Shown: one piece after another, positions 2,285-60,576 of the stretch | Layout of the letters: each line of letters starts with the position of its first letter | How positions within the stretch are numbered: the first letter of the stretch is position 1 | DNA from: Vulcanimicrobiales bacterium | GTDB taxonomy: Bacteria; Vulcanimicrobiota; Vulcanimicrobiia; Vulcanimicrobiales; Vulcanimicrobiaceae | NCBI GenBank assembly: GCA_038215615.1 | Contig: JBBQQR010000006.1 | Coordinates: 6,417 to 70,416, forward strand | DNA: 64,000 bases | Direction: 5' to 3' | Notes under the pieces: generated by a model | The model's database searches: none | What the model saw: only the letters and a program-made list of their open reading frames with translations | What the model was told of the DNA's origin: nothing | Program-made: the position numbers and the translations under genes

Positions 2285-3741
2285 CGGAGTGGACGCGCTA
2301 CGAAGCCGTCATCGGCGTTGAATGCCACGTCGAGTTGAAAACGCGCAGCAAAATGTTTTGCGCTTGCGCCAACGAGTTCGGCGGCGAACCGAACACAAAA
2401 GTCTGTCCGGTTTGCTTGGCGCTGCCCGGCTCGCTGCCGGTTGCTAACGCCGAAGCGATCCGTCACATGATTCGCGCCGGCCTCGCCTTCGGAGCGTCGA
2501 TTCCGGAGTTCTCGAAGTTCGATCGCAAGAACTACTTCTATCCCGATATGCCCAAAGATTATCAAATCTCGCAATACGACATGCCGTTAACGCTCGGCGG
2601 CACCGTGCATTACTGGCTCGAAGACGGTACGCTCAAAGAATGCAAGCTCACGCGCATTCATTTAGAAGAGGATACGGGCAAATCGATGCACGGCGGCGGC
2701 GGGGATGGACGAATTGCGGGCAGTTCGTTCTCGCTAATCGATTTCAACCGCGCCGGCGTCCCCTTGATGGAGTGCGTCAGCGAACCGGATCTGCGCAGCG
2801 CGCAGGAAGCGGTCGGTTATTTGGAGGCGCTCAAACGAACGTTCGTGCAGTTGGGCGTGAGCGACGTAAAGATGGAGGAAGGCTCACTGCGCTGCGATGC
2901 CAACGTTTCCATTCGCCCCGCGGGCAGTACGGAGCTCGGGACCAAGACCGAGATCAAGAACATGAATTCGTTCCGCTCGGTGCTGCGCGCCGTCGAAAGC
3001 GAAATCAAACGGCAGACGGCGATTCTCGAATCAGGCGGCCGTATCGTACAGGAGACGCGCGGCTGGGACGAAGGTCAAGGCGAAACGCACTCGATGCGCA
3101 GTAAAGAAGAAGCGCATGACTACCGCTATTTCCCCGATCCCGATCTCGTGCCGATCGAGATCGACGCCGCGCTCATCGACGAATTGAAGAGAACGATCCC
3201 GGTGCTGCCACCGGAGCGCTTCGCAAAATACCGGGAGTACGGAATGGACGCCAAACAGGCGACGCAGCTCGTCGACAACTCCCCGCTTGCGACCTACTTC
3301 GATGCAACCGTGGCGGCCGGCGCCGACCCGCAAGCGAGCATGAATTTCGTGCTCGGCGACCTTTCGCGGCTGGCAAATGAAACCGGCACGGCGGTGAACG
3401 AATCGGCCGTGACACCGGCGGCGCTGGCAGAGCTCGTCTTGCTCGTGGAAGGCAAAACGATCAATTCGAAGATCGCCAAAGAACTGCTCGAGCGCATGTG
3501 GGCCGGCGAGGGTTCCCCGAAAGCGATCGTCGAGAAAGAAAGCCTCGCGCAAACCAGCGACACGGGCGAAATCGAAAATCTGATCGGCGCTGTCTTGGCC
3601 GCGAACGAAAAAGCGGTAACCGACTATAAAGCCGGCAAAACGAACATCCTGGGTTTTCTTACCGGTGCGGTGATGAAGGCGTCGCGCGGGAAAGCCAATC
3701 CTGCCCTCGTCAACGAACTGCTGCGAAAAAGACTGGAGTAA
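2281..3741 (+). CDS. gatB: Asp/Glu-tRNA amidotransferase subunit B
   Basis: The ORF track starts at 2143, but homology begins at MTEWTRYEAVIGVECHVEL (ATG 2281, an ATGA overlap with the gatA stop). GatB motifs include NRAGVPLMECVSEPD and a C-terminal YqeY-like tail. Confidence 0.96.
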   Translation: MTEWTRYEAVIGVECHVELKTRSKMFCACANEFGGEPNTKVCPVCLALPGSLPVANAEAIRHMIRAGLAFGASIPEFSKFDRKNYFYPDMPKDYQISQYDMPLTLGGTVHYWLEDGTLKECKLTRIHLEEDTGKSMHGGGGDGRIAGSSFSLIDFNRAGVPLMECVSEPDLRSAQEAVGYLEALKRTFVQLGVSDVKMEEGSLRCDANVSIRPAGSTELGTKTEIKNMNSFRSVLRAVESEIKRQTAILESGGRIVQETRGWDEGQGETHSMRSKEEAHDYRYFPDPDLVPIEIDAALIDELKRTIPVLPPERFAKYREYGMDAKQATQLVDNSPLATYFDATVAAGADPQASMNFVLGDLSRLANETGTAVNESAVTPAALAELVLLVEGKTINSKIAKELLERMWAGEGSPKAIVEKESLAQTSDTGEIENLIGAVLAANEKAVTDYKAGKTNILGFLTGAVMKASRGKANPALVNELLRKRLE

Positions 3742-6429: not shown

Positions 6430-7617
6430 ATGTCCAAGCCAATTGAAGAACTGCTCGACGGGTTCGACCATGTCGAAACGCGGCGCGAGCTCGAGGAACG
6501 GCTAGCCGGCGGCGAACCGCTGACCGTCAAGCTCGGTCTCGACCCGACCTCGCCCGATCTGCATCTGGGGCATGCGGTCGTCTTGCGCAAACTTCAGGAG
6601 TTTGTGGAAGCGGGCCACAAGGTCGTACTGGTCATCGGCTCGTTTACCGCGCGCATCGGCGATCCGTCGGGACGCAACGAATTGCGTCCGGCGCTGACGA
6701 CCGCCGACATAACGGCAAACATGAAAACCTACGCCGAGCAAGCCGGCAAAGTGCTCGATATGGATCGCGTGCGCCTAGAATACAATTCCACGTGGCTCGA
6801 CCGCCTGACGTCGGCCGATTTACTGCGGCTGCTCTCCCAGGTCACTGTCGCGCAAATGATTGAGCGAGAAGATTTTCACGAACGCTACACAGCCGGGACG
6901 CCGATCGCGCTGCACGAATTTCTGTATCCGATTGCGCAGGCGTACGACAGCATCGCGCTGCACGCCGACGTCGAGCTCGGTGGCAACGACCAGCTCTTCA
7001 ATTTACTCATGGGGCGCCAGTATCAACGCGCGGCCGGTCAGCGCGAACAGGTGTGCATGACGGTTCCGCTGCTCGAAGGTTTGGATGGTTCAAAAAAAAT
7101 GTCCAAATCGGCGGGTAATTCCGTGGGTTTGACCGAGCCCCCCGAGCAACAGTTTGGAAAGCTGATGCGGATTCCGGACGAGGCGATTCCGCGTTACGCG
7201 CGTTTGGCGGCGTTCCGCTCGCAAGACGAGTGCGATCGTCTTTCGCAAGCGCTCGGCAACGGCAAAGCGCATCCCATGCAAGAGAAGAAGCGGATCGCGC
7301 AAGAGGTGGTCGCCCTCTATCACGGCGGTTCTGCGGCGAATGCGGCCCGCGAATATTTCGAACGGACCGTGCAACAGCGCGAGCTGCCGGCGGGCGACGT
7401 GCCCGAGATTAGGCTGGGCGACGCACGGCGCGTCGCGGACGTGCTGGTTGCGTCGGGGCTTGCGGAAAGCCGGCGCGCTGCGGAGCGTCTGGTTGCGGGT
7501 AAGGGGGTACGCATCGATGGTATACTCGTCGAGGATCCGAAGGCGCCTTGGCCCGCGGGCGGCCCGGTGACGCTCTCGGTCGGCGCGCGAAAATTTGTAA
7601 GGGTACTGCCCAACTAA
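6430..7617 (+). CDS. tyrS: Tyrosine--tRNA ligase
   Basis: 395 aa with a HIGH-type motif (PDLHLGHAV), KMSKS (KKMSKSAGN) and a C-terminal S4-like domain. The start abuts the mutS2 stop. Confidence 0.93.
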   Translation: MSKPIEELLDGFDHVETRRELEERLAGGEPLTVKLGLDPTSPDLHLGHAVVLRKLQEFVEAGHKVVLVIGSFTARIGDPSGRNELRPALTTADITANMKTYAEQAGKVLDMDRVRLEYNSTWLDRLTSADLLRLLSQVTVAQMIEREDFHERYTAGTPIALHEFLYPIAQAYDSIALHADVELGGNDQLFNLLMGRQYQRAAGQREQVCMTVPLLEGLDGSKKMSKSAGNSVGLTEPPEQQFGKLMRIPDEAIPRYARLAAFRSQDECDRLSQALGNGKAHPMQEKKRIAQEVVALYHGGSAANAAREYFERTVQQRELPAGDVPEIRLGDARRVADVLVASGLAESRRAAERLVAGKGVRIDGILVEDPKAPWPAGGPVTLSVGARKFVRVLPN

Positions 7618-9710: not shown

Positions 9711-10142
9711 ATGGAGAAGCTGTTTAAGCCGCCGCCGGTTGAGGCCACGCTTTTTACCGACGGCGGTTCCCGCGGTAATCCCGGCCCGGCGGCGTCGGGC
9801 GCGGTGCTCGTTGGGCCCGACGGTCAGATATTGCACGAGGTCGGGCACTTTCTTGGTGTCGCGACCAACAACGTCGCGGAGTGGACCGCCGTGCAGATCG
9901 GATTGGAAGCCGCGCTGGAACACGGCCTCAGCAGCCTGTCGGTGCGCATGGACAGCGAACTCGTGGTCCGGCAGCTTTCAGGCGAGTACCGCGTCAAGCA
10001 TCCGGACCTTGCGCCGCTTCACGGCCGCGTCAAGAGCCTGCTGCGAAAATTTTCGCATGTCGACATTGCTCACGTACGACGTAACGATAACAAACTGGCC
10101 GACGCCGTGGTCAATCGCGTGCTCGATCAGGAGGAGCAGTGA
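9711..10142 (+). CDS. RNase H (type 1) domain protein
   Basis: TLFTDGGSRGNPGPAASGAVL ... TNNVAEWTAVQIGLEAAL ... MDSELVVRQL ... VRRNDNKLADAVVN gives the D-E-D-D RNase HI-like pattern. ATG 9711 is 9 nt after the tRNA 3' end. Confidence 0.85.
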   Translation: MEKLFKPPPVEATLFTDGGSRGNPGPAASGAVLVGPDGQILHEVGHFLGVATNNVAEWTAVQIGLEAALEHGLSSLSVRMDSELVVRQLSGEYRVKHPDLAPLHGRVKSLLRKFSHVDIAHVRRNDNKLADAVVNRVLDQEEQ

Positions 10143-20503: not shown

Positions 20504-22384
20504 GTGCCGAATTCGATAGTCAGGCGAGGCTTACTCGCCCTCGTGCTGCTGGTCGGAGCTCTCTGCGTTGGGATTGCCTCTGCGGACACGGACGAGACCA
20601 CCGCCGGCATCAATCCGGCGACGATTGGCATGCAGCCAATCCGGGGGGCGCTTCCGGCCGCCACGCCGCTTCCCGGCGAATCTCGGCTCATGCGCCGCGT
20701 GGACGGAACCTTTGCGGCTGTTCCGCAATCGAGCGGGCGCACGCGAACTTTTCACCTCGTGGAACGCGATGCGCCGTGGACGCTCCAGCCCGGACTGACG
20801 GTTCTCGCCAAGACCTATAACGGCGTCGTTCCCGGTCCGACCCTAGTCGTTCATCAAGGCGACCGGGTGGTCATCGATTACCGTAACGAACAGGGCACCC
20901 CGGATACGCTGCACCTTCATGGCATTCACGAGATTCCGGTGAGCATGGACGGCGTCGCGGGCATTTCGCAGGCGCTCGTCAGGCAAGGCGGAGCCTATCG
21001 TTACATTTTCACCGCGGATACGCCCGGCACGTTCATCTATCATTCGCATGACAACGAAGAGATGGTCAACAGCGGATTATACGGCGCGATAGTCGTGTTG
21101 CCGTCCCACCCGTCGGCAGCGGAACGATCCGATCGCGATTACGTCGAGGTGCTGTCGTCTTGGGCGATTCAAAGCCTGAGCGAAAATCATTTCACGATCA
21201 ACGGAAAAGAGTATCCGTACACGGCTCCCATTGAGGTGCGCAAAGGTCAGCGCGTACGGCTTCGCTGGATCAATATCTCGGGCGAAAGCATGCACACGAT
21301 GCATACGCACGGACATTATCAGCGTATCGTAGCGCGCGACGCGCAGCCGGTGACGTACCAGGATATCGAGGATACGGTTTTCTTGGCACCCGGTCAGCGC
21401 GTGGACGTCGTCATCCAAGCGAACCAAATGCCCGGAACGTGGCTGGTGCACTGTCACGTGATCGATCATACCGAGGACGGTTCGGGAATGCCCGACGGCC
21501 TGGTCAGCGCGCTTCATTACCAAGGGACGCCGTATACCGGCGCAGCCATGAACACGGCGATGCGTGCGATGCTTCCCGCGTTCGGCCGTTCGAAAGGCGG
21601 GCTCTCGTTCGGGATGACCGTGCTCCTGGGCGCTGTCGCCGGGCTGACGATCTTTCTTGGATTGCCGGTCGCGCGTATGCGCAACGTGTCGCCGTCGGTT
21701 ATGGCGGCACTGAACGCACTGGCGATCGGGATCCTCGTCTACTTAGTTGTCGAGATCGCCGGAAGCGCGACGGCGCCGCTCGTGCAGGCGGCGCGATTCT
21801 GGCACGGCGGCGGCGCACCGTTGGGAGTGATTTCGCTGGCTCTTGCCTACGTGGGCGGCTTGTTCGCGGGACTGGTCGGATTGGGTTTCGTGGCCAACAA
21901 ACTTAGCAGCCGCGCCGCTTCGTCTGTGCATCAGCCGCTCGTGCTGGCCGCGGTCATCGCGGTCGGAATCGGCGCGCACAATTTTGCCGAAGGGCTGGCC
22001 ATCGGCGCTTCGGCCGCAAGCGGCGCAACGGCAATTGCGGTCGGGTTGATTATCGGATTCGCCCTGCATAACGCGACCGAGGGCTTCGGTATTGCCGCTC
22101 CGCTTTCGGGGCGCATCATTCCGTCCTGGGGGCAACTCGGCCTAGCGGGCATTGTGGCGGGCGGCCCGACTTTTCTCGGTACGGTTGTCGGCTATACGTT
22201 CCAATCGCCGGTTCTCTCGGTCTTATTTTTAGCGACGGCAATCGGCGCGCTCGTCTTCGTGATCGGCGAAATTTGGGCTGTGCTGCGGCGGAACTTAGGC
22301 ATTACTCCGCTGGTGACCTCAATGCTGGCGTGCGGATTCTTGATCGCGTTGACGACGGAGCTAGTCTTGGATTTAAGCGGTTAA
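20504..22384 (+). CDS. Fusion protein: exported two-domain multicopper oxidase (N-terminal) plus ZIP-family metal permease (C-terminal)
   Basis: A single 626-aa ORF with an RR-containing signal peptide (IVRRGLLALVLLVGALCVGIASA). MCO copper ligand motifs are HLHGIH, YHSHDN, HTMHTHGH and HCHVIDHTEDGSGM. From about residue 360 there are about 8 TM helices with ZIP signatures GAHNFAEGLAIG and ALHNATEGFGIAAPL. Confidence 0.85.
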   Translation: MPNSIVRRGLLALVLLVGALCVGIASADTDETTAGINPATIGMQPIRGALPAATPLPGESRLMRRVDGTFAAVPQSSGRTRTFHLVERDAPWTLQPGLTVLAKTYNGVVPGPTLVVHQGDRVVIDYRNEQGTPDTLHLHGIHEIPVSMDGVAGISQALVRQGGAYRYIFTADTPGTFIYHSHDNEEMVNSGLYGAIVVLPSHPSAAERSDRDYVEVLSSWAIQSLSENHFTINGKEYPYTAPIEVRKGQRVRLRWINISGESMHTMHTHGHYQRIVARDAQPVTYQDIEDTVFLAPGQRVDVVIQANQMPGTWLVHCHVIDHTEDGSGMPDGLVSALHYQGTPYTGAAMNTAMRAMLPAFGRSKGGLSFGMTVLLGAVAGLTIFLGLPVARMRNVSPSVMAALNALAIGILVYLVVEIAGSATAPLVQAARFWHGGGAPLGVISLALAYVGGLFAGLVGLGFVANKLSSRAASSVHQPLVLAAVIAVGIGAHNFAEGLAIGASAASGATAIAVGLIIGFALHNATEGFGIAAPLSGRIIPSWGQLGLAGIVAGGPTFLGTVVGYTFQSPVLSVLFLATAIGALVFVIGEIWAVLRRNLGITPLVTSMLACGFLIALTTELVLDLSG

Positions 22385-24716: not shown

Positions 24717-24759
24717 TTGTAGTGATTTTGGGCGGGTGATATACTATTCGCCTGTGCCC
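24717..24759 (+). promoter_or_regulatory. Putative sigma70-type promoter of rpoB with extended -10 and a downstream CTGTGCCC box
   Basis: TTGTAG (24717-22), N17, TG-n-TATACT (24737-45), N6, CTGTGCCC (24752-59). It lies about 140 nt upstream of the rpoB ATG. Confidence 0.45.
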
Positions 24760-24893
24760 TGGCCGCTAGGCATAAAATAGAGAAAGAGCGAGTCACCACA
24801 TGCGGAGTGGTCGGCTTCGTTCTTTTTAGCGTGCTCGGGTCTGCGCAAAACGGCTTCCTTCCTTATATACACTTCCATAGAGAGAGATAACGA

Positions 24894-28817
<3,924 letters not shown>

Positions 28818-37422: not shown

Positions 37423-37752
37423 ATGTCGCAAACACAAACTCGGGTCGTTGTTCTCGACGGCGATTGGGATATCGCCCGGCGTGACGAGCTCGAACGGTTG
37501 CTGACGCCCGCCTACGACTTCCTGGGCGGCCTGATTATCGACATGCAGGCCGTCAACTACGCCGACAGCACGACTCTGGCTGCCCTCATCGTGCTGCGGA
37601 ACCGGCGCCGGAAAAAGGGCCTGGCCCTCCCGAGCCTGGTCATCGGCTCCCGCCAGGTCCGCCGGCTTCTGAGCATTGCCGGGCTGGGCGAGGCCTTTTC
37701 GCTCTACGAAAGCGTCGAAGAGGCCAAAGCCCGCGACGCCTTGACCCCTTAG
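37423..37752 (+). CDS. STAS-domain protein (anti-sigma-factor antagonist-like)
   Basis: 109 aa. VVVLDGDWDIARRDELERLL...IIDMQAVNYADSTTLAALIVL...SRQVRRLLSIAGL is SpoIIAA/RsbV-like, with the DS(T) phosphorylation-site position. Confidence 0.8.
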   Translation: MSQTQTRVVVLDGDWDIARRDELERLLTPAYDFLGGLIIDMQAVNYADSTTLAALIVLRNRRRKKGLALPSLVIGSRQVRRLLSIAGLGEAFSLYESVEEAKARDALTP

Positions 37753-37783
37753 AGTCGGAGCCGTATAATAGCCCTCTGTGCCC
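37741..37783 (+). promoter_or_regulatory. Putative near-consensus sigma70-type promoter of rpoC with a downstream CTGTGCCC box
   Basis: TTGACC (37741-46), N17, TATAAT (37764-69), N6, CTGTGCCC (37776-83). The -35 element lies in the last codons of the STAS gene, about 100 nt upstream of the rpoC TTG start. Confidence 0.55.
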
Positions 37784-37883
37784 GCCCTTGGCGGCCAGCG
37801 GCAACGGTGGGACTCCTTACGTGACCACGTGAGATGAGCGCCCTGCGTAAGCCCGGCCAACGCGCGATGGCTCCGGAGACTCC

Positions 37884-41699
<3,816 letters not shown>

Positions 41700-41705
41700 A
41701 TCGCA

Positions 41706-42329
41706 GTGAGGGGTCGCGCTGCCGTTTTTGTTCGTTACCTCAGCGGCGACGGCGCGGGACACGTCGGCTGGGCGTTCGAGTACGATCCGCCTAAGCTGAT
41801 TGATTCGGGATCGGTTGAGAATCACACGGGAGGCATCCATGCGGATGCCTCCCACATGGATTTTTGGAACGAACTGAGTTCCGATCCCGTCGCGTGCATG
41901 CGCAAGAACCAGTACGACGACGTAAAGTTCGTCGACGTGGACGATCCCGACCCCGTAACCGCTTATGAGACGGTGCTCTGGATCGGGAAACACGCCTACA
42001 TGGCCATTTTGCGCAATTGCCTCGACGACGCATACGACGTGCTGCGCGCGTACGGCGTCCCCGATCTCGAACCACCCTCCCACGACTGGCTTCCGAGAAA
42101 TTGGTTTGCCCATTTCAACGGTACGCAGCGGCCCGTGGCCGAGTTTGATTGGCACGAGGGTCTTACGGAACGAGCCGGAGGAAGCCAAACGCTGCCGGCC
42201 CCCGATTCACTCGAACCGAAAGCTCCGGATTGGCGCAACCCGTTGCGCACGGTCTTTTCCTTATTTCGGTTGGAACTTTTTCGCGATTTCTTTCGCGGGC
42301 TCGTTCACCGCCGCCGCCGCCGGGGTTAG
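41706..42329 (+). CDS. Hypothetical protein, possible permuted papain-fold (LRAT/NlpC-P60-like) enzyme
   Basis: GTG starts 6 nt after the rpoC stop. A His...His...Cys order (GAGHVGWAFEY, VENHTGG, YMAILRNCLDDAYDVLRAYG) resembles the LRAT/H-REV107 H-H-NC arrangement. The last 69 nt overlap the convergent helicase gene. Confidence 0.45.
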   Translation: MRGRAAVFVRYLSGDGAGHVGWAFEYDPPKLIDSGSVENHTGGIHADASHMDFWNELSSDPVACMRKNQYDDVKFVDVDDPDPVTAYETVLWIGKHAYMAILRNCLDDAYDVLRAYGVPDLEPPSHDWLPRNWFAHFNGTQRPVAEFDWHEGLTERAGGSQTLPAPDSLEPKAPDWRNPLRTVFSLFRLELFRDFFRGLVHRRRRRG

Positions 42330-45300
42330 CTGTACGGCGCGCGCGGCTTCCTGATACGCGCAGAGCAAATTCACCAGCGCCATCTGTTCGGGCGTCTTGC
42401 ACGGCGATTCCAATAGGCGGGGGCTGCAGACGATAATGCTCGCGCATTGAGCGCGCGATATCGCGACGTTGAATCGGTTTTTATCAAAAAGGAAGGCTGC
42501 GTCGCGCGGCAACGTCTGCGAACTCGAAGTCGCCATGCTGTAAATCACGACGGCCGCTTCTTGACCCTGGAATTTATCCACCGTGCCGACGCGCACGCTG
42601 CCGTGTCCCTCCGACTCCAGCAACTCTTTGATGCGGATCCGCTGCAAGTTGTACGGCGCGACGATCAGGATGTCGGCTTGCGTCACCGGTCGCGGCGGAG
42701 CCGCGCCTATCGTCACGCTGCCCTGCAATAACCGGCTGACCGCGCCGGTAATCCAGGTGGCTTCCTCGTCGGACTTGCGGCCGTTGCCATCGTGTACCAC
42801 CGGCGCGAACAGCGGTCCGGCGGCCGCAAAATCCGGTGCGTCGATCGAGTTGGGTTCGGTCGTAGGCGAGTTGTGAAGCCGGCCTTCGTAGATGTTCTCT
42901 GAAATAAAACCGGTTAACGCGGGGTTCAATCGATAGGTCGTATCCAAAAAGACGCCGCGGTCGGGCGGAATCGTGCGGTCGCCCGCAAGTAAATGCTCTA
43001 AGATCGAAAGATCGGTCCCGGCGGGATGCGTCCCCTTCGTCACTTGCGGGAGCTGCAGCGGATCGCCCAGCAGTACGACGTTTTTTCCAGCCAAGGACGC
43101 GATCAAGGCGTCGGCCAGCGAAACTTGCCCGGCCTCATCGATGAAGATGTAGTCGAACTCCCGCACGAGGCTCTCATCCGCCCATGCGTACGTCGTGCCG
43201 GCGGCCAGCAGGCACAGCTCGGACGTGAGCGCGCCGAGGTCGTCCTGGCTCTCCATCATCGGCCAATCGGTCAGCGCTTCGTACCTCGATCCTTCGGTTG
43301 TCGCGCTTTCTTTGTGGCAGCCGTGAAAGCGAAACTCCCGTTCTCTTGCGACTTCCTCGACTTTTCGCAGCAAGTTGTGCACGGCTTTGTGACTTTGCGC
43401 GGCTACGCCGACGCGTTTGCCGGCCTGCAGCAGGTCGACGATCGCGTAAGCTCCGGCAGTCGTCTTCCCCGAACCGGGCGGACCCTGCACGAAGAGCGCG
43501 CTCCGACCGAGATTTCCAATGACGCTGGAAACGGAAGCCGGTGTAACGAGCGCGGGTTGAATCGGGGCCGAGCTTTTGAGCGCCGGCGCGCGCGCGAAGA
43601 GCATCTGCAGGGTCGCCGGGTAATCGGCTTGTAGCGTCCCTGCGGCGTACCCTTGCGCGATCCGTTCCATAGCAGCGCGTTTCTTGTGTTGCGGAATCGG
43701 CGTGCCGGGGATGAGCGCGCGCAAGGCGGCCGGCTCGATCGCCTTGGTGAGTTTTATTTTCAGTTCGCGTTTCGCGCCGTCGATGGAGACAATTTCGCCG
43801 GCCCCTTTTTGCGAGTACGGGTCGTGACAGCCTTTGAACGGGAGTCTGTGCTCCTGCGGCGGGAACGTGTAGGTGTAGACCAGATTGCGATCTTCGGGAC
43901 TGCGCTTGTATGGCTCGATCTCCACGCGCAACGTGAGATTTCCGAGCGCCTCGTCATCATATTCTTGCAGATCTTGCGGGTTCGCGCAGCGGTCGAAATA
44001 TTTCCACCACTCGGGTTTGTGTTCGCGCCTGTGATACTGCAGCAGATTGCCCAGTAGCCACCGGGCGCGAAGCTCATCGCTCCAGCCGCGCAGCTCGGCG
44101 GCCGAGTCCGGAGCCGGAAGGCCCTCGAGAAAGCCTTTCTCGAGATCGGTTTGACTGGTTTCCTCCGCGGGTTTGACCACCGGCGCGCCCCGCCACTCGA
44201 GCGGCTCTTCACGACCGGTGTTGAGCTCGTCGCGGAGAACGCGCAGCCATTCCCGCAGCTGGAACGTGGAGCGGCAGTCGTCTTCGTTATAAGCGCGGAT
44301 GTCTTCTAAGATGGCGTCGTCGGGCTGGTCGAGCCACGATTCGAACATGACGATCGACTCGTCGCCGCCCTTGACTTGCGTCTCGCGCTGCAGGCCGTAA
44401 AATGCCTCAACTTTTTTGATCGAGTAAGACGGCTGAGAGATCACCAAGCCTTGCCGCACCACCGGGTAGAGATCGACGAAGATGCCTTGCCGCAGGAAAT
44501 CGTCAACCTCGCGTTCACGCGACCCGTAACGGCCCATGAGTCGCTTGAGAACGGAAATCTCGTACGAAGCGTAATGGTAGACGTGCGCGTCCGGGTATTC
44601 TTCGCGACGCCGCACGACGAAATCGACAAACGCTTCAAAGGCCGCGCGTTCGAGTGCCGGATCGGTTCCCCAAAAGGCCTGATACGTGTCTTCGGCCGGG
44701 AGATAGAACCCCCAGAGATATTCCAGGCCGCGGTCGGCGCGGTACAGCGGGTCGCCTTCGATATCGAAGAAGATGTCGCCGGGATCGGGTTTGGGGAGCT
44801 TCGCGAACCCGCCAAGCTCGTCGCACGGGCGGAACTTGTAAAAGTGTTCGCCTTCCCCGTTTGCGCGGGACGTGCGGTGCAGATGCTGCTGCTGCGCCTG
44901 ATCTTTCAGTCGCTCGAACGCAGCTGCCGACATCTTGTTCGGCTTCTCGACGGCGGTAGCCAGTTGTGCGAGCGTATGGATTCCGCTCTTTTCGAGCTTG
45001 GCGATCTGATCGCGCCGGATGCCCGCGACCAAACTCAAGTGGTCGTCGTCATCGCGTCGCTTCGTGCACTGAGCGCTCCATGGACAGATAACGCAGTGAG
45101 CGCATTCGAACGGGTAGACGTCGCCGCCGGTCTTGACGCTTTCCAAGAACGATTGTTTCAAGTGCCGGTAATACGCCGCAAAGTCGGCTAAGAGAAACGG
45201 TGCATCCTCGCCGCTCCCGAGCACGATGTGTCCGAACTTCGGGGCGGTGCCTTGCACGCGCTCGACGTGCTCGCTGTAATTACAGAGCTGAATGAGGAAA

Positions 45301-45743
45301 TACGGTTTGGGATGCAGCGCGAGCTTCGTGTCGATGACTTCGTAGCTCCAGTCCCAGTGTGCCGATTTCGTCTCGGTGCGCCGCAAGAAATCCGCGTGGC
45401 CCACGAATGTGCCGTCGAAAAATGTGGCCTGGTAGATGTAGCGGACGCCTTGCTCCATGGCGCGTACCGTCCGGGCTTCGGCTTCGCGCAAGCCGGCGAT
45501 CGTCTGTTCGGGGGGACGATCGAATATCTCGACCTCCGCTTGGAGTTCGGTCAGACGCCGTAGGTAATGCCGCTCGTGTTCCTCACCCTTGCGGGCGATG
45601 AGCGCGGTCATGGGGTCGACTTGTGCCGGGCGCTCTTTCTGCCCCAGCGCGACCAGGCGGTCTAGCTCGGTGAGATGGCGGCACTCCAGAAAGTTGTTGA
45701 GGTCGGAAGCCGAGTAGACGGGGGCGCGATCGATGCGCTGCAT
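42261..45743 (-). CDS. RecB-like (Cas4/PD-(D/E)XK, Fe-S) nuclease, RNase H-fold exonuclease-like domain and SF1 (DNA2/Upf1-like) helicase fusion
   Basis: 1160 aa. N-terminal SASDLNNFLECRHL...YEVIDTKL...CAHCVICPWSAQC gives the Cas4-like Cys cluster. The middle DIEGDP...YHYASYEISVLKRL...YNEDDCRST is DEDD-like. The C-terminal region has Walker A GPPGSGKTT, DEAGQ, VDKFQGQEA and NVAISRA. Confidence 0.85.
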   Translation of the reverse strand: MQRIDRAPVYSASDLNNFLECRHLTELDRLVALGQKERPAQVDPMTALIARKGEEHERHYLRRLTELQAEVEIFDRPPEQTIAGLREAEARTVRAMEQGVRYIYQATFFDGTFVGHADFLRRTETKSAHWDWSYEVIDTKLALHPKPYFLIQLCNYSEHVERVQGTAPKFGHIVLGSGEDAPFLLADFAAYYRHLKQSFLESVKTGGDVYPFECAHCVICPWSAQCTKRRDDDDHLSLVAGIRRDQIAKLEKSGIHTLAQLATAVEKPNKMSAAAFERLKDQAQQQHLHRTSRANGEGEHFYKFRPCDELGGFAKLPKPDPGDIFFDIEGDPLYRADRGLEYLWGFYLPAEDTYQAFWGTDPALERAAFEAFVDFVVRRREEYPDAHVYHYASYEISVLKRLMGRYGSREREVDDFLRQGIFVDLYPVVRQGLVISQPSYSIKKVEAFYGLQRETQVKGGDESIVMFESWLDQPDDAILEDIRAYNEDDCRSTFQLREWLRVLRDELNTGREEPLEWRGAPVVKPAEETSQTDLEKGFLEGLPAPDSAAELRGWSDELRARWLLGNLLQYHRREHKPEWWKYFDRCANPQDLQEYDDEALGNLTLRVEIEPYKRSPEDRNLVYTYTFPPQEHRLPFKGCHDPYSQKGAGEIVSIDGAKRELKIKLTKAIEPAALRALIPGTPIPQHKKRAAMERIAQGYAAGTLQADYPATLQMLFARAPALKSSAPIQPALVTPASVSSVIGNLGRSALFVQGPPGSGKTTAGAYAIVDLLQAGKRVGVAAQSHKAVHNLLRKVEEVAREREFRFHGCHKESATTEGSRYEALTDWPMMESQDDLGALTSELCLLAAGTTYAWADESLVREFDYIFIDEAGQVSLADALIASLAGKNVVLLGDPLQLPQVTKGTHPAGTDLSILEHLLAGDRTIPPDRGVFLDTTYRLNPALTGFISENIYEGRLHNSPTTEPNSIDAPDFAAAGPLFAPVVHDGNGRKSDEEATWITGAVSRLLQGSVTIGAAPPRPVTQADILIVAPYNLQRIRIKELLESEGHGSVRVGTVDKFQGQEAAVVIYSMATSSSQTLPRDAAFLFDKNRFNVAISRAQCASIIVCSPRLLESPCKTPEQMALVNLLCAYQEAARAVQLTPAAAAVNEPAKEIAKKFQPK

Positions 45744-54106: not shown

Positions 54107-56743
54107 GTGACGCGGCTGGCCGACGCTGCACGACCCGCCGGACCGGCAACATTTTCGCCGATCGTTCGTCCGCGAATATCGCAGCGCATCGACGCAGCCG
54201 CTGCCGGCCGAATCGTCCTGATTGTCGCCCCTGCCGGATACGGAAAATCCCTGGCGCTGTCGCATTGGCTGGAGTGCCAGCCGCGCCGGCCCGTGCGCTT
54301 CGACGTGCAAACCGAACACGATACGCTGCTCGGGTTTGTGCGCGGAATTGCGGATGCGTTCTTCCAGTTCCCCGCGTTGCGGAAGACCGTGGCGACCGCA
54401 TTTCAAAACAGCGCGTCGGCTGCGGCGCCGGGAATTGAAATGGCTCGCTGGATGGCAGCCCATCTTGAGGCATTTGAGGGTACCGTCGCCATCGACGATT
54501 TTCACCGCGCGAGCGAGGATGTCGAGGTTTCGCGGTTCGTCGCCTCTCTGATCGCCCGAACGAAGCCGCGGGTACAGTGGGTGCTGGCCACGCGCTCGAC
54601 ATTAGATCTGCCGGTCGCGAGTTGGCTTGCTTACGGCGAAGCGCATTTCGTCATCGGCGATCGCGATCTGCGCTTCTTAGACGACGAAGCGCTCGAGCTT
54701 TCCCAAGGCGCAGGGCAAGTCTGGTCGCCGCGGGCGCTTCGGGGCGTGATGGACGCGACGTCGGGTTGGCCCGTCGCATTGGGGCTTGCGCTGCGAAGCA
54801 CGAGCGTATTGAACGGCGCCGATCTTTCACACTCTACGCGCGAGGTACTGTTCCAATACCTGGCGGAGCAAGTCTATGCCGACCTTTCGCCGGAAGAGCG
54901 CGAGCTGTTGCATTTTGCCGCATACTTACCGTCGATCGATATCGGCGTTCTCGAAGTTGCCGGCTATCGCACCAGTGCGAGAATGTTGGAAACAGTCCGA
55001 CGAAGAGCGACATTTCTTTCGCTCGAATCCCCGGGCAGATACAAGTGCCACGATCTATTTCGCGAATTCTTGCGAAGTCAGTTCGAACTGAATGATCCGG
55101 CGGAGGCGAAATGCTCACAGGAGAAGGCGGCCTCAGCTTTGGAGCGGAGCAGCGATGTTGTCGCAGCGTTGCGCCTCTACTCGAAGCTACATGCGACACC
55201 CGCGATTTTGCGGATCCTGCGCGAGCACGGCTTTAACCTAATGGATCACTCTCACGGTGATGTTGTAGAAAGCGCGCTGCAAGCGGTGCCGCCGAACGTG
55301 CGATCTGCCGACGCCATCATCCTCGGCTTGCGCGCCCAACGTGCCGCCGATGCCGGACACTTGGAGCGCGCCGAAGCGCTGTTCAGGCGTGCGCTAGACT
55401 CCACGAAGGATACCGACGCGCGCCTAACACTTGCGGTCTCTTTCGCGGTTTTGCAAAGGAACCAATCGCGCTCCGTTAATGAGATTCTTGGTCCCCTAGA
55501 CGCATCTGCGGGGCGACTTGAGTTGCGAGCCGAGATGGCTGCCTTGCTCGCGACCGACAGCGCGCTGTCAAACGAACAAAATAGCGCTAAGGAAAGGGTC
55601 GCGGCGGCAGAGCAGTTCTGCGCGCTTATTGAATCGCAGGAGGTTCGCGCCAAGCTACTTTTGCGAATCGGAATCGCTAAAATGACGCTGGGCTACGCTG
55701 CTGACGAAGTGCTGTCAGGATTGTCAGAGGCCGCTACCTTAGCGGAAAGAATTGGGATGCTTGGCATCGCGGCTAGAGCATATAATGTTCTGGGCATGGC
55801 GCAGTTGTTCTGTCTAAACGCGCCGGACAAAACACTAGAATCCGAAAAGAAAGGTGCAATTGCCGCCATAAAGAGCGCCGATCGCTTTGCCCTACAAGCT
55901 TCAATTACATGCTCAATTACGGCGGAAACAAACCTTGGAAATGCGCGGGCATTAGAACCGTTGCTATCGCGCCTTAGCGACGCTGCCATATCGGACGCGG
56001 AACGGCTGCGCTCCATTAGATCTTACACGCGAGCCACGATTTGTGCTTGGAATGGGCATCTTCAAGACGCCGTCGTGCTGATGGGCGACCTAGTGTCAAA
56101 TAATTACGGTTATTATGATTTCGACCAACTGTTCAACATGGCAAGCCATGCTTTATTTGCGGCGGCATGCGACGATATTTCGGCGAGCAGGAAGCTGCTG
56201 GTTGCCGCGGCCGAAAAAAGCAGGCACTGTAAAGTTCCACATGCGTACGCCAAAGCGAAATGGGGCGTTGCAACCGTGTTTTGTGCAACCGCGGAATATC
56301 TAAACGGCCGTCGACAACGCGCTGGGGAATTACTGAAAACGTTACCGATGGACTCCCCTGCGTCCGTGATGCGCCTAAGCGAGACGCTAAATGTATTTTT
56401 ACAGGGAGGTAGCGATTGGAACGATGACGTGTCGACCTTAGTAAAATCAGTCGCGGGCGGATACACCGGTGCAGCTCGGACGCTTGAGGCGTGCATGAAG
56501 TATTGGGCGGCTCTACACGGTGTGGGCGCTCGGCCAAGTGGCGCCTTGACGCCGGCTGAACGACGCGTATTGTTTGATTTAGAAGCGGGGGAAAGTCCCA
56601 AGGAAATTGCTGCTCGCACGGGGCGGAGTATTCACACGATTCGAACGTTGATTCAGCGATCTATTCAGAAGCTTGGTTGTCAGGGACGTCATGAGGCTTT
56701 GGCGATGGCTCGACGGTCCGGAGTATTCACGATAGATCTCTAG
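54107..56743 (+). CDS. MalT/LAL-type STAND ATPase with C-terminal LuxR HTH (paralogue 1)
   Basis: Walker A IVLIVAPAGYGKSLALSHWL, Walker B VAIDDFH, TSGWPVALGLAL, helical/TPR-like middle, C-terminal LTPAERRVLFDLEAGESPKEIAARTGRSIHTIRTLIQRSIQKLG. GTG 54107 gives 878 aa, matching the 880-aa paralogue. The stretch 53978-54106 contains rare codons (tta ata tct tta). Confidence 0.85.
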   Translation: MTRLADAARPAGPATFSPIVRPRISQRIDAAAAGRIVLIVAPAGYGKSLALSHWLECQPRRPVRFDVQTEHDTLLGFVRGIADAFFQFPALRKTVATAFQNSASAAAPGIEMARWMAAHLEAFEGTVAIDDFHRASEDVEVSRFVASLIARTKPRVQWVLATRSTLDLPVASWLAYGEAHFVIGDRDLRFLDDEALELSQGAGQVWSPRALRGVMDATSGWPVALGLALRSTSVLNGADLSHSTREVLFQYLAEQVYADLSPEERELLHFAAYLPSIDIGVLEVAGYRTSARMLETVRRRATFLSLESPGRYKCHDLFREFLRSQFELNDPAEAKCSQEKAASALERSSDVVAALRLYSKLHATPAILRILREHGFNLMDHSHGDVVESALQAVPPNVRSADAIILGLRAQRAADAGHLERAEALFRRALDSTKDTDARLTLAVSFAVLQRNQSRSVNEILGPLDASAGRLELRAEMAALLATDSALSNEQNSAKERVAAAEQFCALIESQEVRAKLLLRIGIAKMTLGYAADEVLSGLSEAATLAERIGMLGIAARAYNVLGMAQLFCLNAPDKTLESEKKGAIAAIKSADRFALQASITCSITAETNLGNARALEPLLSRLSDAAISDAERLRSIRSYTRATICAWNGHLQDAVVLMGDLVSNNYGYYDFDQLFNMASHALFAAACDDISASRKLLVAAAEKSRHCKVPHAYAKAKWGVATVFCATAEYLNGRRQRAGELLKTLPMDSPASVMRLSETLNVFLQGGSDWNDDVSTLVKSVAGGYTGAARTLEACMKYWAALHGVGARPSGALTPAERRVLFDLEAGESPKEIAARTGRSIHTIRTLIQRSIQKLGCQGRHEALAMARRSGVFTIDL

Positions 56744-56791
56744 CATGTTGCATCTGGAGGAGCAGACCAGAGCACGCCTAAGGCATCCGTA

Positions 56792-59434
56792 ATGATTAGG
56801 CCAGTCAGGGCAGATGGCCACGTGGAGCGAGGCGGGATCTTTACTCCGGTTGTTCGGCCGCGAGTCATCGACAGAATTGCGTCCGCGGCCTCTCAGAGGG
56901 TTGTTCTGGTTGTTGCTCCCGCCGGCTACGGTAAATCACTTGCCGTCGGCCAATACCTGGACACCTCGAGTGAGCCCTACGTGCGTTTTGATGCTAAGCC
57001 TGAACACGCGCGTCTGTTAGGATTCCTTCGTGGTTTTGCCGATGCGCTGTCGACAGTTACTGTGGATGCGCGGCGAACGCTCAAGGCCGCCTACGAAGCA
57101 AGTTGCCCGTCAAGAACGCAGGGCGCGGATCTAGCGATGTGGATGCATTCGCACATCAAGAGCTATTCGGGGTTAATTGTAATCGATGATTTGCATGTTA
57201 CTGAGGCAGATTGTGAAGTAACAGAGTTTTTATCCACCTTGGTCGCTCTCTCGCGTGGACGTACGAGATGGCTGCTCGCGTCAAGATCTACACTAGATTT
57301 ACCGGTTGGTTCGTGGCTGGCATACGGCGACATGGATCTGACAATCGATGAGCATGATCTGCGATTCACGCTGGAAGAGGCGCGACAGGCTGGGAAGGCC
57401 GCGCGCGTCACCGTCCGGGATGAAGAGCTTGAACAGCTATTGCTGATGACGCAAGGCTGGCCAACCGCGTTAAGTTTCGCTTTGCGTTCATCGACGAGAT
57501 CCGTAGATCTCAAGAATATCCAGGCAAACACGTTGGAAATGGTGTACCGTTATCTCGCCGAGCAAGTATATCGGGGCCTAAATAGTGAAGAGCGAGATTT
57601 ACTGCACTTTATCTCGTACCTCGACGAAATAGACATTCCTGTGCTTCGCAAAGCCGGCTATACGCACGCCAAGCGCATTATCGAGAGTCTCCGAGATCGG
57701 GTTGCGTTTATATATTCGGATAAGCCATCGATTTATGGTTGCCACGATTTGTTTCGTGGATTCCTTCGGCATCAGCTCGAGTTAAGTGGGGACGCAGCCG
57801 TTCTTGCCACTCAATTGAAGGCGGCGCGAGCGCTTGAAGCGGTTAACAATGTCCCGGCCGCGCTTCGAATATTCGCGCAAGCGCTTTCTGCAGATGACGT
57901 CTTGCGGTTGCTCGAAACCCATGGTTTGGAACTCGCGGAGCAGGGTCACGGCGATGTAGTACAAGTTGTCCTCACAATCGTACCTCATGACATACGTGCC
58001 AAAAATCCCTACGTGTTGGGTATTCGCGGAATCGTGATGGGAGATGCCGGTAGGCTTGATCGTGCCGAATCACTCCTGCAGCGAGCCATCGCAGGCGCTA
58101 AAGACGTAGCTTTAAGAGCAACGCTCGCCATAAAACTAGCTTTAATTCTCGCGAACCAGATGAAAGAAACAGCTAGCGTCCTGGAGCCTCTAAAGTCCGA
58201 ACCACTTTCGAAGAATTTGCGTAGCGAGGTTCTCAGTCTTCTCGCGATTGCGTATGCGTACGCCGCTCGGCCAGAACAGGCGGAAGAGGCGGCACGTGAG
58301 GCGGAGCTTTTGGCGTCTGAGCTAGACAATGACCAAGATCGCGCGAAGGTGTTTCACCGTATCGCAATTGCGGAAGCTCGACTGGGCTTGCCTTTTGAGA
58401 AAGTGCTTGCTATGCAGGAACGAGCGGCTAGCCTTGCTTCAGAGCAGGGTTTGTTTGGTTTGGCAGGGCGTTGTTTTTCATCGTTGGCTAGCATCGCGCT
58501 TTTCTACGAAGGCGATATTACAAGAGAAATTTGGTATGCCCAGCAGGCATCTACGGCGTCGATGAAAGCCGGCGATCGAATAAATTTGCAGACGGCCCTA
58601 CTGCAGTTAATTGATATCGAGGGTCGGCGCGGCGATGCCGAGCGAATTCTGACGCTGGAAAAGCAGCTCGCCGCCGTAGCTACGACAGACGCAAACCGGC
58701 TTGTGTACGTGGTTCCGGTTCGCGCTCTATTTGCCGCATGGCAGGGAAAGTTTGATGAAGCGCACCGTCTTATGGCGACTGTCGCCGGCAATGCCCGCTT
58801 CTTTGATTTCGATCGCGCCCTCAATGCTGCGATCGATGCCGTACTTTTATTGGCCGACGGTCGGCGCGAGGAGGCTCTCGCCGCCACTTCTCAGGCGCTG
58901 GCGGAGATCGAAAAGGGAGTATCGCCTTTGCCGCACGCAAGGCGTCAGAACGAAATAGCAAAACTGTTCTGTTGTATAGTAGAAAGCCTCGCAGGTCGTC
59001 AGTTAAATGCTCAGCGGCTTCTACGTGTTAAGCCACTGACTCACGGCCCGGCGGTTCAGGCTTTTCGAAATGCTGCAGCGGCCGTCTTGCGGATGAATAA
59101 AACCGATTGTGTAGACACGCTGACGGAACACTTCGAGGGTATCTCACTCGCTGGCTACGGCGGCTTCGCGCGTGTTCTGGGACTGGCAATAGAGAAGATT
59201 CTGAACTCTGGTGCGAGTGACGAGGAATTGACTCAGACCCAGATCCAGATCTTGGAGGCTTTAGCTTTGGGCCGGACCCCTAAAGAAATCGCCCGCGAGA
59301 GCGAGCGGAGCCTTTACACTATCCAAACACATATCCAGAACATCATAAAACGGCTCGGGTGCAGCGGTAGGCACGAAGCGCTTGTAATTGCTCGTGCGCG
59401 CGGTCTACTGAACGACGCCGGCGCACCATCCTGA
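56792..59434 (+). CDS. MalT/LAL-type STAND ATPase with C-terminal LuxR HTH (paralogue 2)
   Basis: VVLVVAPAGYGKSLAVGQYL, IVIDDLH, TQGWPTALSFAL, C-terminal LTQTQIQILEALALGRTPKEIARESERSLYTIQTHIQNIIKRLG. The gene lies entirely in a low-GC segment. Confidence 0.87.
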   Translation: MIRPVRADGHVERGGIFTPVVRPRVIDRIASAASQRVVLVVAPAGYGKSLAVGQYLDTSSEPYVRFDAKPEHARLLGFLRGFADALSTVTVDARRTLKAAYEASCPSRTQGADLAMWMHSHIKSYSGLIVIDDLHVTEADCEVTEFLSTLVALSRGRTRWLLASRSTLDLPVGSWLAYGDMDLTIDEHDLRFTLEEARQAGKAARVTVRDEELEQLLLMTQGWPTALSFALRSSTRSVDLKNIQANTLEMVYRYLAEQVYRGLNSEERDLLHFISYLDEIDIPVLRKAGYTHAKRIIESLRDRVAFIYSDKPSIYGCHDLFRGFLRHQLELSGDAAVLATQLKAARALEAVNNVPAALRIFAQALSADDVLRLLETHGLELAEQGHGDVVQVVLTIVPHDIRAKNPYVLGIRGIVMGDAGRLDRAESLLQRAIAGAKDVALRATLAIKLALILANQMKETASVLEPLKSEPLSKNLRSEVLSLLAIAYAYAARPEQAEEAAREAELLASELDNDQDRAKVFHRIAIAEARLGLPFEKVLAMQERAASLASEQGLFGLAGRCFSSLASIALFYEGDITREIWYAQQASTASMKAGDRINLQTALLQLIDIEGRRGDAERILTLEKQLAAVATTDANRLVYVVPVRALFAAWQGKFDEAHRLMATVAGNARFFDFDRALNAAIDAVLLLADGRREEALAATSQALAEIEKGVSPLPHARRQNEIAKLFCCIVESLAGRQLNAQRLLRVKPLTHGPAVQAFRNAAAAVLRMNKTDCVDTLTEHFEGISLAGYGGFARVLGLAIEKILNSGASDEELTQTQIQILEALALGRTPKEIARESERSLYTIQTHIQNIIKRLGCSGRHEALVIARARGLLNDAGAPS

Positions 59435-59667
59435 CGGCCAACGGCATACTGATCTTTAATTAGAGACCTAAAGCGCAGTCCGGGCTATTCTAAGAGCTAA
59501 TCACACGAGTTTCTCAAGGAGCATTTGAAGTGGATTCTCTTGTCTTAGCTATAGAACTTATTTTTGTCGGTACCGTCCCCCCGACAATCGGATAGTCGGG
59601 CACCACCCTGACCGTATATACGCGAATTAGTTCGCTCGGATCGGACCTATCGCTGCTTACAAAGGCC

Positions 59668-60576
59668 GTGATCGAGCAGCTCCAAGATCCGACGTTGGTG
59701 GGAGATCCGGGCCTGGAAAGGTCGATTGAGGCGCTCCTCGATCGGCTTTGCATGTCGGTCAACCTCTCGAAACCCGTCGGTTTGAGCAATTGGGCGGTGC
59801 GCGAGGGGAACCGGTTGGGGACGGCACGCGCGAGCGAACTCGCGTCAGCTGCCCTTCATGTCGTGGCCGGCGAGGCCGCCCGTTTCGATCTCGACCACGG
59901 GCGGCTCTTGGCGTTCATGGAGGTGTTGCGCTCCGAGATCGTCTCGGAGTTAGCGTGGCACAAAAATGGAAAGCCTGAAGAACCGGCCGAATACTCCGAG
60001 AGCACTCGCGCGTTATTGGCAATGTTAGGCGAACGGGACTCGGCGACGTGCTGCCATTCCCGCGCAACGGGCGAATGGGCGCGCCGTCTGTGCGCCGCGA
60101 TGGCAATTCTGCCTGAGAAAGCGGAATTGATAAAACTTTGCGCAGTATTGCACGACATCGGCAAAATTTCCACGCCCGAGGCCATTCTTTTCAAACGCGG
60201 CACGTTTACGGAAGACGAGTGGGCGATCATGCGCGACCATTCGGCCGCCGGACAGCGCGTTCTGGATCAAATACCGACCCTGGCAAAATGCGCCCTGATC
60301 GTCAGAGCGCATCACGAGCGCTGGGACGGCACCGGCTATCCCGACGGCTTAGCGGGCGAAAACATTCCGTTTGAAGCGCGCGTCGTCGCCGTGGCGGACG
60401 CCTTTCATGCGATGATTAGTGAGCGTCCGTACCGCAAGGCTATACCTCCGCGTCAGGCCCTGGAGATATTGGAGGCGGGCCGCGGCACACAATGGGATGC
60501 CGGCGTTGTCGACGCGATGCTAGGCTTATTTCGAAAGTCACGTGAGCGCCACGAGGTCCGCGCTTCGAGCGCATAG
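59668..60576 (+). CDS. HD-GYP domain protein (putative c-di-GMP phosphodiesterase)
   Basis: HDIGKISTPEAILFKRG, HHERWDGTGYPDGL and VVAVADAFHAMISERPYRKA are canonical HD-GYP motifs. GTG start. Confidence 0.9.
   Translation: MIEQLQDPTLVGDPGLERSIEALLDRLCMSVNLSKPVGLSNWAVREGNRLGTARASELASAALHVVAGEAARFDLDHGRLLAFMEVLRSEIVSELAWHKNGKPEEPAEYSESTRALLAMLGERDSATCCHSRATGEWARRLCAAMAILPEKAELIKLCAVLHDIGKISTPEAILFKRGTFTEDEWAIMRDHSAAGQRVLDQIPTLAKCALIVRAHHERWDGTGYPDGLAGENIPFEARVVAVADAFHAMISERPYRKAIPPRQALEILEAGRGTQWDAGVVDAMLGLFRKSRERHEVRASSA

Follow-up and report, generated by a model that had tools for sequence, protein, structure and literature searches.

Within a stretch of 64,000 nucleotides (nt) from a Vulcanimicrobiales bacterium (contig JBBQQR010000006.1), which we call the window, the RNA polymerase genes rpoB and rpoC each stand behind a promoter of their own, and both promoters carry the same eight bases, CTGTGCCC, exactly 6 nt past the -10 hexamer. 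Judged from the sequence, this box most likely marks the transcription start together with the ATG or GTG start codon and the proline codon of a tiny upstream frame. Both window copies can be read as C at -2, T at -1, a GTG start codon at +1 and the proline codon CCC. The window is DNA from a sediment metagenome. No RNA run was found to contain it, and the transcript data discussed below come from relatives only. The promoters and genes concerned are the following.

24717 to 24722, plus strand: -35 element of the rpoB promoter, TTGTAG, read from the sequence (TTGACG or TTGACC in relatives)
24737 to 24745, plus strand: extended -10 element of the rpoB promoter, TGaTATACT, with the hexamer TATACT at 24740-24745
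24752 to 24759, plus strand: rpoB box CTGTGCCC, 6 nt past the -10 hexamer, predicted start G24754
24894 to 28817, plus strand: rpoB, 1307 amino acids (aa), identified with Pfam
37741 to 37746, plus strand: -35 element of the rpoC promoter, TTGACC, overlapping the last codons of a STAS-domain gene (37423-37752)
37764 to 37769, plus strand: -10 element of the rpoC promoter, TATAAT, 17 nt from the -35 element
37776 to 37783, plus strand: rpoC box CTGTGCCC, 6 nt past the -10 hexamer, predicted start G37778
37884 to 41699, plus strand: rpoC with a TTG start, identified with Pfam, GGAG 7 nt before the start

Conservation and occurrence of the box

Both window promoters have a housekeeping (sigma-70 type) architecture, and the same layout was found in all relatives examined. 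The rpoC promoter matches the consensus hexamers of the sigma-70 type at 11 of 12 positions, and the 17-nt spacer of the rpoB promoter ends in TGa. An earlier note on this DNA had described the two layouts as TTGTAG-N17-TATACT-N6-box and TTGACC-N17-TATAAT-N6-box, which direct reading confirmed. Its statement that the 8-mer occurs nowhere else in the window also held on both strands, the count being 2 and the chance expectation 1.5. For the match at an identical offset it had estimated a chance probability of 1e-4 to 1e-5; with the base composition of the window we computed about 0.26^8 = 2e-5 per fixed offset. The count of the 8-mer was thus unremarkable and only the identical offset was unusual, so a comparison with relatives was needed to settle the question.

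The loci of relatives were fetched through their RpoB and RpoC proteins, independently of the box. The closest proteins carried Candidatus Eremiobacteraeota names (Rubrimentiphilum, Cybelea, Baltobacteraceae, Vulcanimicrobiaceae), and a contig scan with full-length RpoB gave one close relative, L012, among the matches listed. We compared ten rpoB promoters (L012, L081-L086, L209, L210 and the window) and six rpoC promoters (L081, L086, L087, L088, L211 and the window). The sequence C-[T/G]-[A/G]-T-G-C-C-[C/T/G] stood exactly 6 nt past the -10 hexamer in 10/10 rpoB and 6/6 rpoC promoters, the window included. All 16 promoters had a -35 element of the TTGNNN type (GTGACA in L087), followed after 17-18 nt by TANNNT. 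The information at the successive box positions was 2.0, 1.7, 1.0, 2.0, 2.0, 2.0, 2.0 and 1.3 bits, on a par with the T, A and T that never vary in the -10 hexamer, while the N6 segment, the spacer and the bases past the box held no more than 1.0 bit each. Position 3 was A or G only, and positions 4-5 were always TG. CCC was replaced in two of the 16 promoters, by CCT and by CCG; both departures changed the wobble base only and kept proline.

Conservation in relatives, which the earlier note had named as a check, was therefore borne out, with the box at its fixed offset in 16/16 promoters. The GGCCGC/GGCGGCC element that it had seen after the box exists in the window; in the relatives only GGN/GGC recurs a few bases on. 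Because offset and sequence were kept while the flanks diverged, a chance resemblance is excluded, and there is little doubt that the box is a selected element linked to the start site.

The supposed link to the two separated polymerase genes also held. In 229 kilobases (kb) of Eremiobacterota DNA, retrieved without use of the box, the box occurred in a promoter context only at rpoB and rpoC. The pattern TTGACN-N16-18-TANNNT gave 11 sites on both strands of this DNA, and 9/11 were rpoB/rpoC promoters. The one ribosomal operon examined, rpsB-tsf of L084, has TATAGT-N7-CTGTCAAA without the box. In L085, where only 136 nt separate rpoB from rpoC, the module of promoter and box lies before rpoB only, and neither promoter nor box was found in the gap. 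The corresponding gap in L086 measures 720 nt; rpoB is followed there by a terminator, and a full promoter and box precede rpoC. The outgroup L212 (RpoC identity 84%) has the classical secE-nusG-rplKAJL-rpoB-rpoC order, and no such promoter or box was found at its rpoB/rpoC. Taken together, the patterns of L085, L086 and L212 indicate that the module accompanies rpoB and rpoC where they stand alone. Eremiobacterota appear to keep a strong housekeeping-type promoter before rpoB, and before rpoC wherever it lies outside the operon.

A probable start codon and short upstream frame

Metagenome contigs were scanned with TTGAC-N18/19-TANNNT-N6-CTRTGCCC, which returned at least 120 matching stretches; 80 were taken as loci. 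Among the matches listed, 23/80 loci precede rpoB or rpoC of Eremiobacterota-like contigs, 3 further loci have the same leader types on contigs that end before the gene, and in many of the remaining loci a long gene begins at the RTG of the box. Pfam matches identified products of such genes as UvrA, DnaA, a YfiO/BamD-like lipoprotein, a LysR regulator and an IS1595 transposase. Since the same promoter-box string begins full-length genes, its geometry is that of leaderless genes, for which a -10 hexamer, eight bases and RTG is the predicted arrangement. A 5' ATG or GTG is both required and enough for leaderless translation in mycobacteria, where CTG and TTG are inactive (PMC4633059). The A or G at box position 3 agrees with this start-codon rule.

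Ordinary genes of the phylum were also seen to start 6 nt past a TANNNT, with no room for a Shine-Dalgarno sequence. Examples are a 1160-aa helicase-like gene at 42261-45743 (minus strand) and further starts at 21199, 16592 (minus) and 6433 (minus) in L081 and at 9722 (minus) in L083. Leaderless genes thus seem to exist in this phylum. The leaderless uvrA genes of L145, L157, L162 and L168, on GC-rich soil contigs, have kept GCTAACGTAGGAAAGTGGAGAG directly before the -35 element; this may be a regulatory site, possibly of the SOS type.

We translated 40 non-redundant rpoB/rpoC leaders from the RTG, 30 of the ATG type and 10 of the GTG type. In 25/30 ATG-type leaders, the first in-frame stop fell exactly at codon 6 (12 TAA, 8 TAG and 5 TGA). 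When the downstream bases were shuffled, the number of codon-6 stops averaged 0.9 and reached 6 at most, compared with the 25 observed, and the other two frames of the 30 leaders showed no preferred stop position. The ATG-type frame reads M-P-x-G-x-stop, that is, five codons with residues 3 and 5 free and with GGC, GGA or GGT for glycine. The leader peptides include MPRGV, MPRGE, MPLGG, MPRGA and MPKGG at rpoB, and MPRGK, MPRGI, MPCGK, MPLGR and MPPGR at rpoC. No amino-acid runs or regulatory codons were found in the leader peptides examined, and apart from the box module the rpoB and rpoC leaders cannot be aligned to each other. The free residues 3 and 5 and the fixed stop at codon 6 imply that length and stop are under selection. 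Such constraint would be typical of a regulatory upstream open reading frame (ORF) and not of a functional peptide. In our judgement, the case that the box begins a translated leaderless mini-ORF, acting through the leader, is evenly balanced.

The frames of the window are of the GTG type.

24754 to 24780, plus strand: predicted leaderless mini-ORF of rpoB, GTG CCC TGG CCG CTA GGC ATA AAA TAG, MPWPLGIK and stop, 8 codons
37778 to 37837, plus strand: open frame from the 5'-terminal GTG of rpoC, 19 codons, then TGA at 37835-37837

The window rpoB mini-ORF is a GTG, frame-shifted variant of the M-P-x-G-x-stop of the relatives. The corresponding frame is ATG CCC CGG GGC GAA TAA in L209 (RpoB 94% identical over two-thirds of the query) and GTG CCC CGC ACC CAA ACC TAG in L211 (RpoC 97%). 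A C follows the proline codon (CCC-C) in most metagenome copies and in 10/16 of the promoters collected independently of the box; in the window it is T or G (CCC-T, CCC-G). An open +1 frame past CCC-C was considered and dropped, since it was stop-free in 14/30 leaders, not clearly above the expectation for GC-rich DNA. We also rejected a chain of overlapping frames in the window rpoC leader (GTG 37778 to TGA 37837, ATG 37833 to TGA 37887, then the TTG start of rpoC), because the relatives lack the second ATG. The frame 37833-37887 shares bases with the stop of the frame before it (ATGA) and with the start codon of rpoC (TTGA), and is probably incidental. In L103 and L125, which have rpoB leaders of about 68 nt, the leaderless frame spans the whole leader and ends in TAATG over the rpoB start, an overlap that suggests translational coupling in these lineages.

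Leader structures, transcripts and rival explanations

Two structures were located in the window leaders downstream of the box.

24782 to 24830, plus strand: terminator-like hairpin (5' arm rich in A) and T run in the rpoB leader, a candidate attenuator, then a conserved GCGTGC
37793 to 37859, plus strand: conserved rpoC-leader structure, a long irregular hairpin around CCUUACGUGNNNACGUGAG, from a consensus fold of 5 sequences

The window rpoB hairpin itself covers 24782-24826, with the T run at 24820-24827, and begins 1-5 nt past the mini-ORF stop, depending on how the A-rich base of the stem is counted. In most rpoB leaders of the relatives, a hairpin (-12 to -25 kcal/mol) and a U tract lie about as far from the start; the hairpin begins 11-18 nt past the stop of the 5-codon frame. 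Most ATG-type rpoC leaders contain CAGGG...CCCUG and a U-rich run 7-14 nt past the stop (-11 to -20 kcal/mol). Sequence and length vary so widely among the terminator stems that they could not be aligned and were scored leader by leader; a MAFFT-based consensus fold of 14 rpoB leaders contained only a hairpin of 3 base pairs (bp). In L086, L103, L110, L125 and L158, the GCCC of the box forms the foot of a hairpin starting at +3. This hairpin is followed by a U-rich run in L086, L103 and L158, and none was found after it in L110 and L125. With a gap of 5-18 nt between the mini-ORF stop and the hairpin, only a steric overlap of the terminating ribosome with the hairpin base is conceivable. A specific attenuation logic would seem rather unlikely.

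The rpoC-leader structure had 25 consensus pairs in its 5 sequences, 4 of them with compensatory changes. Its nested helices around CCUUACGUG-NNN-ACGUGAG were common to L211, L081, L087, L088 and the window, making it a candidate for a new cis-regulatory RNA of rpoC. A search of the whole window against Rfam 15 at the gathering score found only a tRNA, and a search of both leaders at E <= 1 found nothing relevant.

Transcript data were taken from Logan contigs of the metatranscriptomes of relatives. At the rpoB of L164 (predicted +1 at 6551, minus strand), a 700-nt contig with a depth of 6.2 ended at +10, and a 600-nt contig from a related strain, obtained in another study, ended at about +9. 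At the rpoC of L152 (predicted +1 at 3720), a contig with a depth of 15 started at +12/13, where it was fused to the Illumina adapter AGACGTGTGCTCTTCCGATC. The adapter fusion at 3731-3732 (run X39) implies that many complementary DNA ends lie at one place. The junction may reflect a library effect at a 5' end, or else processing of the transcript within the mini-ORF. Overall, the contigs indicate that the promoters are active in the relatives, with 5' ends no more than about 13 nt from the predicted start. Such libraries may plausibly lose the last ~10 bases, and data of this kind cannot separate +1 from +10 as the start. Some read-through or DNA is present in the contig sets. The rpoC leaders of L130 and the window met only rpoC coding contigs of other strains, which are uninformative on the start site.

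Several observations weigh against the box as the start of a translated leaderless frame. The RNA contigs end at +9 to +13 and not at +1, and two low-depth contigs cross the promoters, one at the rpoB of L164 (depth 2.0, ending at -4) and one at the rpoC of L152 (ending at +5). At the box, 8 nt separate the -10 hexamer from RTG, whereas the mode of this distance is 6-7 nt in the candidate leaderless genes of the phylum; these genes are only mildly enriched for -10 boxes 5-8 nt before their starts. The 10 GTG-type leaders, both window copies included, have frames of 2-33 codons. Among the rpoC leaders of the same type as that of the window, the frames of relatives differ in phase and length (2, 6, 12 and 15 codons), frame shifts separate even the close relatives L087 and L088, and L081 reads GTG CCT TGA. 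As the GTG-type frames vary, the universal part is RTG-CCC at a fixed place, not the peptide. Furthermore, CCC is present in 14/16 promoters although the genome prefers CCG for proline (62% vs 27%), implying a nucleotide-level constraint beyond coding, and the CT before the purine is nearly invariant, yet predicted to be untranscribed. The window rpoC leader has no terminator, the single-sequence folds of both window leaders were not beyond those of shuffles (z = -1.2, +0.5), and no alternative antiterminator pairing was found in the single folds or the alignment fold. The retention of CCC in place of CCG, the near-invariant CT, the GTG frames and the missing rpoC terminator and antiterminator leave a nucleotide-level role as a serious rival.

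Such a role might belong to a DNA-level promoter element, a sequence at the start site or in the initial transcript that RNA polymerase itself reads and that tunes both promoters alike by acting on the choice of start site, the lifetime of the open complex, promoter escape or control by growth rate; the mini-ORF would then be secondary or incidental. The offset from the -10 hexamer, fixed in 16/16 promoters, fits this idea, as do the conservation of the untranscribed CT like the rest of the box, the persistence of CCC against the preference for CCG, and the lack of a conserved frame in the GTG-type leaders. These promoters are also by far the best -35/-10 matches in the 229 kb (9/11 sites). 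A DNA-level element leaves unexplained, however, the codon-6 stop of all three kinds in 25/30 ATG-type leaders, and also the lack of any pyrimidine at position 3 and the constant TG at positions 4-5; we know of no polymerase-contacted element with the sequence of the box. We consider it possible, if improbable. A 5'-terminal RNA stem-loop, in which the GCC of the box pairs with a nearby downstream GGC to guard against 5'-end-dependent decay or to bind a protein, is less likely still. It would account for the constraint on the individual nucleotides of CCC and on the GG in 'codon 4', many single folds place the box in a 5' hairpin, and in the consensus fold of 14 rpoB leaders the pairs G3-C12, C4-G11 and C5-G10 form in 13-14 of 14. 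The three pairs are invariant, though, and hence without covariation, loop size and register differ among leaders, ATG-type rpoC leaders allow only about 2 pairs, and neither the conserved stop codon nor R-T-G is explained.

The earlier note had proposed a shared operator, an initial-transcribed element or a leader element. A position-locked element at or just after the start stood up to the comparison; the operator did not. A repressor or activator that bound DNA at +1 to +8 of both promoters and thereby co-regulated them would occupy a position typical for repressors, and a palindrome, GCCCCGGGGC, lies right at the box in some relatives. This palindrome is nevertheless unconserved, with a loop or spacer of 2-14 nt, while the conserved part is 8 bp long and asymmetric, with no dyad of 12-20 bp or direct repeat. 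No regulator gene was conserved beside either promoter in the gene tables of the relatives. The operator is the weakest of the three options, because a conserved dyad is lacking and the box reads as CT, a start codon and CCC, and we consider it very unlikely. Nor is the 8-mer a private regulatory word, since the same string starts uvrA, dnaA, bamD-like, lysR and transposase genes elsewhere. The note was right in kind, was probably wrong about the operator, and missed the reading as a start codon with proline. Chance resemblance of two unrelated promoters, with which the 8-mer count of 2 against an expected 1.5 would agree, is next to impossible; it is refuted by the identical offset kept in 16 independent promoters and about 24 further metagenome promoters with diverging flanks.

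Gene order and a possible control of polymerase synthesis

In Eremiobacterota, rpoB is detached from rplKAJL and rpoC lies at a variable distance from it. The distance is 3 kb in L081 and 9 kb in the window, and in other relatives rpoC was not within 7-10 kb of rpoB. Outside L085 and L086, the two genes are 3 to >10 kb apart. No ribosomal protein genes were found upstream of rpoB in the window or the relatives examined. This looks like a stepwise break-up of the rpoBC operon inside one phylum. The interval between rpoB and rpoC in the window contains seven reading frames, six of them gene-like. There are a TonB-dependent-receptor-like gene, two frames without a Pfam match, a hydrolase, a major facilitator superfamily (MFS) transporter and a frame on the reverse strand that has an N-terminal methylation motif and was dropped by gene picking based on GC at third codon positions (GC3). 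The STAS-domain gene is the last before rpoC and terminates within the rpoC promoter.

RpoB of the window has an N-terminal extension of about 65 aa (24894-25100), rich in Ala, Lys, Ser and Pro, which is kept in Eremiobacterota relatives. Proteins of other phyla do not have it; among the matches listed, theirs start at about residue 61-69. Elsewhere in the window, the region 56000-60000 has a GC content of 0.54-0.55, compared with about 0.61 in the rest, and may be acquired DNA. The only other consensus promoter-like site of the window, TTGACG-N16-TATTGT, is at 56546.

If the box is a leaderless start, the following course of events can be envisaged. A pyrimidine at -1 and a purine at +1 would fix the transcription start. 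The 5'-terminal AUG or GUG would then make the transcript a leaderless mRNA with the proline codon CCC in second place, and a 70S ribosome could engage the nascent leader at its 5' end and translate the mini-ORF. Up to the stop codon, this ribosome would hinder the folding of the leader, which in the rpoB leader means the terminator. Transcription would then continue into rpoB in step with translational capacity, which the expression of rpoC would track likewise. Since the same 5' module stands before both genes, beta and beta' would stay balanced with their genes 9 kb apart. We infer co-regulation of rpoB and rpoC on these grounds. A more particular version seems unlikely to us, namely that a leaderless 5-codon AUG-CCC-C ORF gates both subunits, that CCC-C makes it sensitive to the m1G37 of tRNAPro, and that the module was copied to rpoC when the operon broke up. 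There, a ribosome at the stop would suppress the terminator or leader structure, so that polymerase output would be set by translational capacity and beta and beta' kept in step. In E. coli reporters, a second-codon CCC-C was the most +1-shift-prone context and depended on m1G37-tRNAPro (PMC6335274). The likeness to those reporters is one of sequence resemblance only.

The closest parallel in kind comes from mycobacteria, in which leaderless short ORFs (sORFs) encoding polycysteine serve as attenuators of a 'Cys ribulon' (bioRxiv 10.1101/834739). There, and by prediction here, the first cistron is a very short, unannotated ORF that begins with an RTG at the 5' terminus. In both cases, sORFs of one kind recur on several separate transcription units, which would respond jointly, and the hosts are Terrabacteria-type organisms. 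Unlike the mycobacterial sORFs, the frames described here have no regulatory amino-acid run, with M, P, (G) and length conserved instead; their targets are rpoB and rpoC, their translation is a prediction, and the downstream element resembles an intrinsic terminator and not a structure that sequesters a ribosome-binding site. For E. coli rplKAJL-rpoBC, a transcription attenuator in the rplL-rpoB spacer and autogenous control of beta and beta' at the transcriptional and translational levels are described (PMC4670729, citing Dykxhoorn et al. 1996). Both systems have a terminator-like element just before rpoB, by which polymerase synthesis could be set apart from that of its neighbours. They differ in that rpoB here does not follow rplL and has its own promoter, the leader begins with a mini-ORF, and rpoC bears a second copy of the module.

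The order of a short ORF, a hairpin and a U tract before a structural gene is likewise that of trp, his, pheST and pyrBI attenuation. In contrast to those leaders, the ORF here would be leaderless, has 5 codons and no regulatory codons, and no antiterminator alternative was identified. Bacterial mRNAs can also be stabilised at their 5' terminus by hairpins or by ribosomes bound or stalled near the 5' end. The box resembles such stabilisers in lying at the extreme 5' end, where it could hold a ribosome or a small hairpin.

The element is new in its place, on rpoB and rpoC of an uncultivated phylum, and known in kind from leaderless regulatory upstream ORFs and leader attenuators. For motif searches it carries a caution, because a 'shared regulatory box' past the -10 hexamer can be a leaderless start codon with the second codon. 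How bacteria keep beta and beta' in balance has been worked out for the co-transcribed rpoBC operon alone, and there only in part. In this phylum, rpoB and rpoC have come apart repeatedly, and the shared module is a concrete candidate, open to mutation, for what maintains the stoichiometry when no operon does. Translation of the mini-ORF, if it occurs, would place the RNA polymerase genes under a ribosome-dependent leader control that couples transcription capacity to translation capacity, and leaderless regulatory sORFs would extend beyond Actinobacteria.

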